Part shown: piece by piece, positions 45,950 through 46,085 of the stretch
How the letters are laid out: each line of letters starts with the position of its first letter
How positions within the stretch are numbered: position 1 is the stretch's first letter
Source: Escherichia coli
Lineage (GTDB): Bacteria > Pseudomonadota > Gammaproteobacteria > Enterobacterales > Enterobacteriaceae
Length of the DNA: 50,400 nucleotides
Reading direction: 5' to 3' (one strand)
NCBI RefSeq assembly: GCF_003334335.1
Contig: NZ_QOWQ01000034.1
Made by a program: the position numbers and the translations under genes
The notes under the pieces: model-generated
The model's database searches: none
Told to the model about the DNA's origin: nothing
Seen by the model: the letters and a program-made list of their open reading frames with translations, nothing else

Positions 45950-46085
45950 GCTCTGTGCGCGCTTTGCCCCTCACCCTAACCCTCTCCCCAAAGGGGCGAG
46001 GGGACCGATCGAGCACAGTGTTAAAATCGGCGCTGATTTTCTCCCTCTCCCTGTGGGAGAGGGTTGGGGTGAGGGCATCAGCGCG
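45950..46085. repeat. GC-rich extended palindrome (long imperfect hairpin)
   Basis: TGTGCGCGC..GCCCCTCACCCTAACCCTCTCCCC ... GGGAGAGGGTTGGGGTGAGGGC..GCGCGCACA; arms of about 22 bp plus inner CCCTCTCCC repeats. Confidence 0.7.

Follow-up and report, generated by a model that had tools for sequence, protein, structure and literature searches.

The GC-rich palindrome found in the lateral-flagella (Flag-2) cluster of the Escherichia coli window analysed here (the window being the whole stretch of DNA under study, 50.4 kb) is, as judged from its sequence, an inverted pair of BoxC elements, that is, an already-known repeat family in a known arrangement. Taken as a whole, it is very probably a tail-to-tail BoxC pair of derived origin that has no regulatory job specific to this locus and whose main effect is physical. 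The earlier note on this DNA had considered an attenuator, a protein-binding site, or a different family of intergenic repeats. The last of these options, in which the family was left unnamed, was the right one: the palindrome is identified as an inverted pair of the BoxC/PIT/TMECO family.

The repeat finder delimited two arms of 35 nt each at 45954-45988 and 46055-46089, which are 86% complementary and lie 66 nt apart; the limits of the element are 45954-46089. The previously proposed length of 136 bp is thus correct, and the coordinates that came with it (45950-46085) have to be moved about 4 nt to the right. The arm strings named in the earlier note are both present (GCCCCTCACCCTAACCCTCTCCCC at 45966-45989 and GGGAGAGGGTTGGGGTGAGGGC at 46055-46076), the GCGCGC clamps were located at 45957-45962 and 46081-46086, and the nesting is borne out by a local hairpin, CCCTCTCCC/GGGAGAGGG, at 46043-46063. 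A second nested local hairpin is CCCCTCACCC/GGGCGAGGGG, and the left-side nested hairpin occupies 45967-46003 (repeat finder). The element is the longest inverted repeat of the window, where its arm motif occurs twice against zero occurrences expected from shuffles. Its parts and its two neighbouring genes are as follows (positions in the window):

45017-45946, plus strand: upstream gene for a 309-aa FliB-like protein (PGAP CDS), with the stop 8 nt before the element
45954-46089: whole composite of 136 bp, in which linkers and terminal inverted repeats accompany the inverted BoxC pair (arms, folds)
45954-45962: left terminal inverted repeat TGTGCGCGC, 9 bp, holding a GCGCGC clamp (sequence, repeat finder)
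45967-46002, minus strand: left BoxC/TMECO unit, type A (TTA loop), 'A mm' (regex match)
46003-46042: central spacer; inner linkers GACCGATCGAGCAC and GATTTTCT, plus a small hairpin in the middle at 46016-46035
46043-46076, plus strand: right BoxC/TMECO unit, CCCTCTCCC TGT GGGAGAGGG TTG GGGTGAGGG C
46081-46089: right terminal inverted repeat GCGCGCACA, 9 bp (sequence, repeat finder)
46125-48569, plus strand: downstream gene for a glycosyltransferase of 814 aa that has a GT2 domain at its N-terminus; the gene starts 36 nt past the element

RNA folding, a check proposed with the earlier note, predicted a strongly stable structure on either strand. The plus strand folded at -93.4 kcal/mol, compared with -54.5 +/- 4.1 kcal/mol for shuffled sequences (z = -9.5, with none of 200 shuffles equalling it), and the minus strand at -88.2 kcal/mol (z = -8.3). 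As DNA, the two strands folded at -47.8 and -48.0 kcal/mol (z = -9.2 and -8.5, respectively). A search in Rfam with permissive thresholds gave no family at the gathering threshold; the best match was a plant miRNA hairpin model (34.4 bits vs 90), and the matches to eukaryotic miRNA and snoRNA models were discarded as generic hairpin noise.

The palindrome had also been described as unlike the REP elements, and consistently, the REP consensus (GCCGGATGCGGCG...CGCCTTATCCGGC) is absent at 45954-46089. The window has five canonical REP units (GCCGGATGCGGCGT.AACGCCTTATCCGGC, 0-1 mismatch), all of them outside the palindrome:

30599-30628, minus strand: canonical REP unit
36438-36467, plus strand: canonical REP unit
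39662-39691, plus strand: canonical REP unit
41691-41720, plus strand: canonical REP unit
48630-48659, minus strand: canonical REP unit, just past the glycosyltransferase stop codon

The assignment to BoxC relies on the fit of the consensus in both halves of the palindrome and on the many other copies present in E. coli genomes. The consensus, CCCTCNCCC-N3-6-GGGNGAGGG-N3-GGGNGAGGG (PMC4666352), was matched (regex) on the minus strand at 45968-46002 and on the plus strand at 46043-46075. For the genome-wide search of similar palindromes suggested by the earlier note, we used blastn with the 151-nt region as query against 5426 complete E. coli genomes, and obtained 78,709 similar places in 5400 of them, with a median of 16 per genome. 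Nearly all of these places are chromosomal, only 54 being plasmid-borne. Some of the E. coli genomes sampled had a low copy number, with 1-3 BoxC-like places rather than the median of 16 (NC_011742.1 S88, M1/5 and strain 1290); at least S88 is a phylogroup B2 strain. A BoxC copy is also found in the K-12 fabI-ycjD spacer, and the first description of box C came from the envM (fabI) region.

The family has been described more than once (Bergler 1992; Bachellier 1999; Hoyne et al. 2000; Holder et al. 2015, PMC4666352). BoxC was found a second time under the name “potential intrastrand triplex” (PIT) element, which was then named TMECO (PMC4666352). In K-12 it is annotated as a repeat of 56 bp, in 32-33 copies; the K-12 record has a separate entry for the RSA repeat (150/151 bp, 6 copies), to which the composite could conceivably correspond. 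As TMECO, K-12 has 23 units, including five inverted pairs, each of them formed by one type A and one type B unit; type A is defined by a TTA loop and type B by a CCG loop (Table 1, PMC4666352). Across Proteobacteria, 3610 copies were reported in 262 genomes, with strong differences between strains (1 copy in IHE3034 vs 29 in strain 55989; Holder et al.); among the published counts, Salmonella has no copy and Enterobacter asburiae has 143. According to the published survey, the genes next to TMECO do not fall into any functional class, and published work reports raised variability around TMECO loci (PMC4666352). The units from K-12 form a triplex in vitro according to CD and NMR, whereas DMS footprinting did not detect it in vivo (PMC4666352). 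The Delihas 2011 review does not mention BoxC, and among the papers searched from 2015 onward none dealt with TMECO or BoxC function.

Both units of the window element can be compared with those of K-12. The left unit reads CCCTCGCCCC TTT GGGGAGAGGG TTA GGGTGAGGGG on the minus strand, has one Watson-Crick stem mismatch, and is identical to K-12 TMECO nos. 7, 11 and 15 (Table 1, PMC4666352). In architecture the right unit follows type B, with a length of 34 nt, a TGT loop and, just before ATCAGCGCGC, a trailing C, but its second loop is TTG and not CCG; this loop is TCG in the sister allele of HCP5 and CCG in that of WL297. Blocks 1 and 2 of the right unit are perfectly complementary, and its block 3 (GGGTGAGGG), when placed antiparallel to GGGAGAGGG, gives only G.G, T.A and A.A combinations. 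The base pattern of the units, as read from the sequence, permits a class II purine-motif intrastrand triplex, in which blocks 1 and 2 would form a Watson-Crick hairpin and block 3 would lie antiparallel to block 2 in G.G, A.A and T.A triplets. The element thus resembles the known BoxC/TMECO copies in being intergenic, multi-copy, arranged as an inverted pair like those at five K-12 loci, and located at a hypervariable locus. It differs from them in the TTG loop of its right unit, neither TTA nor CCG (all five K-12 pairs are A+B), and in its spacer of 40 nt, the K-12 spacers measuring 59 nt in one pair and 16-27 nt in the other four. K-12 also lacks this particular copy, as the Flag-2 locus is missing there.

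The same modules were found at other loci in various arrangements. The phnL-phnK composite of strain EC20 has the same A-linker-B layout as the window element, with 86% identity over the full length, and is ordered as GTGCGCGC, a reversed type A unit, GACCGAT(C/T)G(A/T)GC, a central segment, GGTTTTCTC, a type B unit and ATCAGCGCGCAC. The left ends of this composite and of the one at phnP-yjdP (strain SJC33) are (G)TGCGCGC, and the right end at phnL-phnK is the complementary GCGCGCAC; the phnP-yjdP composite has its left end and inner linkers and is missing the right-hand GCGCGC end. The inner linkers GACCGAT(C/T)G(A/T)GC and GGTTTTCTC recur at phnL-phnK, phnP-yjdP and hrpB-mrcB. The hrpB-mrcB copy of K-12 has a circular permutation of the modules, head-to-head (B, one shared GCGCGC, A reversed), the lone fabI copy of K-12 corresponds to the A half with linkers, and lldD-trmL (K-12 nos. 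17+18) has an inverted pair with a minus/plus order like that of the window. Since the modules recur in permuted, single and paired arrangements, their sequences indicate that the BoxC family is assembled as a mosaic from two types of unit and two of linker, with a BIME-like organization. REP/BIME elements are likewise GC-rich palindromic intergenic mosaics in which two unit types alternate with characteristic linkers, often in intercistronic positions, although their sequences are unrelated to BoxC. REPs have known partners in the RAYT transposase, gyrase, Pol I and IHF; these are not known to be partners of BoxC.

At two of these loci we observed exchanges involving other palindromes. The phnL-phnK slot contains a BIME with two REPs in K-12 (L141:897-1006) and a 134-bp BoxC composite in EC20 (L005:1469-1644), with flanks identical to the base, so that two unrelated repeat families have been exchanged at one site. 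In the lldD-trmL spacer of YPE12 (L145, ~385-420), a 35-nt palindrome, CTGTCTCTTGATCAGATCTCCTGATCAAGAGACAG, stands in for the inner part of the BoxC pair. It resembles two IS50/Tn5 inside ends and may be a scar of transposon excision or an assembly artefact.

The inverted-pair layout extends beyond the enterobacteria. We scanned one genome per species for the three-block motif in this layout, and among the matches listed it was present in Pseudomonas, Burkholderiales, Rhizobiales, Verrucomicrobiales and a Peregrinibacteria MAG, as well as in the cyanobacterium Phormidesmis and a Thermodesulfobacteriota MAG; the spacers among the matches listed were lineage-specific. The layout is thus known, among the matches listed, beyond the Proteobacteria reported in 2015.

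At the element, the window is identical to E. coli ATCC 8739. The genes of this part of the cluster, all on the plus strand, are flgA, flgM, flgN, the 309-aa gene and the 814-aa glycosyltransferase gene. As stated in the earlier note, the palindrome lies between a gene then left as unknown and the transferase gene, the PGAP annotation having the stop of the former at 45946 and the start of the latter at 46125; its location is thus intergenic. The 309-aa product has the FliB_C domain (PF27117), reaches 43 bits with the NCBIfam FliB model (NF038110), under the cutoff of 85, and is named “hypothetical protein” or “lysine-N-methylase” depending on the genome. It aligns to positions 105-363 of the 373 of the FliB model, thus being without the N-terminal third, and is a putative methylase. 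For this gene the ORF tool gives TTG 44978 as the start, which precedes that of PGAP by 39 nt.

The ORF-track start of the glycosyltransferase gene (GTG 46053) falls inside the element, and ATG 46125 had been proposed as the real one. This is also the PGAP start, and the ATG is aligned in all strains and outgroups. The N-terminus MPTPTIIKTL is kept in E. fergusonii, which does not have the palindrome; in ST131 an in-frame TAA is found 9 nt upstream of the aligned ATG; and, with this ATG as residue 1, the GT2 domain starts near residue 14. The frame is merely open through the repeat, and the ORFs that cross it (the one from GTG 46053, and others of 69 and 108 aa) are artefacts. Outside E. coli, we noticed two further differences in this region. 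The Flag-2 cluster of E. marmotae (L132:1-2480) is truncated, with a DNA methylase gene and one EcoRII-like restriction gene directly upstream of flgM, in the place of the flgA and rod genes of E. coli. In C. rodentium (L137:4494-7052) the counterpart of the 814-aa glycosyltransferase consists of two ORFs, of 289 aa (GT2) and 526 aa, which suggests a fusion in Escherichia, or else a split or frameshift in C. rodentium.

The junction between the methylase and glycosyltransferase genes was found in 1279 of the 5426 E. coli genomes. About 748 of them have element-type alleles, and 525 are ST131-like (at least 95% identical), with a spacer of 46 nt. The element is therefore kept in ~58% of the genomes bearing Flag-2, and is not rapidly lost. 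The outgroups have short spacers without BoxC (48 nt in E. marmotae, 53 nt in E. fergusonii, 48 nt in C. rodentium), as do the ST131-type (B2) E. coli, the whole range being 46-53 nt. Each short spacer has a small GC hairpin. This hairpin scores as terminator-like in two of the outgroups, E. fergusonii and C. rodentium (where nine T follow the stem); in E. marmotae and ST131 it is degenerate. Since both the outgroups and the ST131 type have short hairpin spacers without BoxC, the alignments indicate that the composite is derived in part of E. coli, where it replaced an ancestral spacer of ~50 nt with a small hairpin. The alignment of filled and empty alleles revealed no target-site duplication at the Flag-2 junctions.

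The position of the ancestral hairpin may suggest that the composite took over its role, as a functional intercistronic RNA element in a flgAMN-methylase-glycosyltransferase mRNA; it could then block 3'-5' exonucleases and stabilise the mRNA upstream, as REPs do, be cut by RNase III, or lessen to some extent the read-through into the glycosyltransferase gene. The five genes from flgA to the glycosyltransferase gene share the same strand, the RNA folds with high stability (-93.4 kcal/mol), a hairpin is present at the same position in the outgroups, terminator-like in two of them, and at phnL-phnK, a site within an operon, strains have either a BoxC composite or a BIME. Nevertheless, we regard this explanation as rather unlikely. 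The orientation, size and arm sequence of the element vary freely, and 525 genomes do without it. Scanning the end of the big hairpin revealed no terminator-like site, the stem being followed by ACATTCATCAC on the plus strand and by CAGAGCGACTC on the minus strand, and there is no sigma-70 promoter-like site at or beside the element. Because it has no U-tract, the element is not an intrinsic terminator; it shares with Rho-independent terminators the GC-rich hairpin between same-strand genes, here at the position of a terminator-like hairpin in outgroups, but its stem is far longer than is typical. A paper on RNase III cleavage sites does not mention these loci, and the assays of such elements by Hoyne and Maher (2002), in the summary given in PMC4666352, detected neither promoter nor terminator activity. 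The attenuator option of the earlier note, in the form given there, finds no support in view of the same observations, namely the missing U-tract on either strand, the strains in which the element is absent, flipped or rearranged, and these assays as summarised; its grain of truth is the short hairpin present in the outgroups at the same slot, terminator-like in two.

We favour instead a BoxC pair whose main effect is physical, and the alleles found at this one locus have the kind of diversity that such a structure could produce:

Window / ATCC 8739 type: A...B', TTG loop, gap 178 nt
HCP5S3_I2: A...B, TCG loop, gap 178 nt
WL297: flipped (B...A), gap 190 nt
Genome labelled Pseudocitrobacter faecalis: flipped, two outer arms of B type, gap 178 nt
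2824 and YZMc3-1: flipped, third block lost symmetrically in both arms, gap 159 nt
A3024 and Eco_24-2013: 64-bp collapse, perfect hairpin with a 23-bp stem (-77.5 kcal/mol), gap 114 nt
UCPROB-002: three units (B, A, A), gap 260 nt

The WL297 element is 89.1% identical to that of the window when flipped and 71.5% in the same orientation; alleles of this type could reflect independent replacements rather than an inversion in place. The spacer of UCPROB-002 (L139, 399-658) has B reversed, A and A, with an apparent tandem duplication of a ~73-nt module composed of spacer plus A. In the collapsed allele the left arm is the exact complement of the right arm. A plain deletion between the 9-bp CCCTCTCCC direct repeats is insufficient to explain the A3024 allele: its left arm has also changed, with one C lost and a T to C substitution. 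This arm turned into an exact complement, which points to template switching or conversion. Similarly, the TTG loop of the right unit in the window looks like a partial conversion between arms, judging from the loops of the sister alleles. The changes across the series agree with the published hypervariability of TMECO.

The physical effect would arise from the near-perfect arms, which may fold back in single-stranded DNA at replication into a hairpin or cruciform, or alternatively, following the literature, into an intrastrand purine triplex. Such fold-back would invite template switching, slippage and conversion from arm to arm, and these processes could yield flips, homogenized arms, collapse into a perfect hairpin, symmetric trimming and duplication of units. 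If the element is co-transcribed with its same-strand neighbours, the RNA would carry a hairpin of ~60 base pairs with no U-tract, and this hairpin would be at most a REP-type barrier at the 3' end or a processing site, not an intrinsic terminator. Long RNA hairpins of this sort are known from other families: when co-transcribed, the ERIC/IRU and Correia/NEMIS elements give long RNA hairpins that RNases can process, and the Correia/NEMIS hairpins of Neisseria are cut by RNase III.

These families belong to the MITE type, and are, like the composite, imperfect palindromes of ~100-150 bp with terminal inverted repeats. The BoxC composite could accordingly be thought of as a MITE, inserted in either orientation by a transposase recognizing the TGTGCGCGC/GCGCGCACA ends; besides those ends, its size of ~135 bp and its many dispersed copies, this would account for the presence/absence polymorphism, for the two orientations at one site, and for a copy number that depends on the lineage (1-3 places in low-copy genomes such as S88 vs the median of 16). 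We consider it improbable, however, as the model is weakened by the lack of target-site duplications and by the several arrangements of the units. In all four comparisons of filled and empty alleles (Flag-2, phnL-phnK, hrpB-mrcB and lldD-trmL) there is no target-site duplication, and the resident sequence has been replaced rather than interrupted. The units also occur singly, or head-to-head sharing one GCGCGC, as expected from a BIME-like mosaic rather than from a fixed transposable unit, and plasmids carry only 54 of the 78,709 places. The composite has no sequence similarity to ERIC/IRU or Correia/NEMIS, and its three-block purine/pyrimidine motif is specific to BoxC. The published survey mentions neither a parent insertion sequence nor a transposase whose ends match.

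As to how BoxC composites could spread without a transposase, a speculative model, to which we give a still smaller chance, would let a folded-back copy act as primer or template when resident intergenic sequence is replaced, with a preference for hairpins already there, such as terminators and REPs, after which the copy would flip and homogenize in place; that the three-block motif and the inverted-pair layout are conserved across distant phyla would then reflect, instead of chance, a trans-acting partner or a shared mechanism of replication or repair. The idea that BoxC targets pre-existing hairpins was itself considered and found weak: two of the four loci fit (the terminator-like hairpin of Flag-2 and the BIME of phnL-phnK), and the empty alleles of hrpB-mrcB and lldD-trmL have no hairpin at the junction. 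At the two loci that fit, occupancy of the hairpin slot and of the BIME slot could reflect functional substitution rather than neutrality, and at Flag-2 the element may affect the ratio of methylase to glycosyltransferase mRNA. Finally, an operator, nucleoid-protein site or other regulatory or protein-binding site of the lateral-flagella regulon, as the palindromic symmetry and the position just upstream of a gene start might suggest, is a very improbable explanation, given that the same sequence is found beside unrelated genes (fabI, hrpB-mrcB, lldD-trmL and the phn genes), that neighbouring genes form no functional class in the published survey, and that the element is absent at this locus in the outgroups and in 525 E. 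coli genomes. We infer that the BoxC pair plays no regulatory role specific to the Flag-2 locus.

For the annotation of this region, these results mean that the glycosyltransferase starts at ATG 46125 and that the palindrome upstream is a BoxC pair, and probably not a regulatory device of the lateral flagella. What the analysis adds is the evidence that a BoxC composite replaced an ancestral terminator-like hairpin, together with the allelic series at a single locus. In a compact natural series, the locus offers the ancestral hairpin, the composite in either orientation, and forms that have collapsed, been trimmed or grown to three units. The series illustrates the published claim that TMECO elements are local hotspots of genome instability, and it may be a useful system in which to study template-switch mutagenesis.
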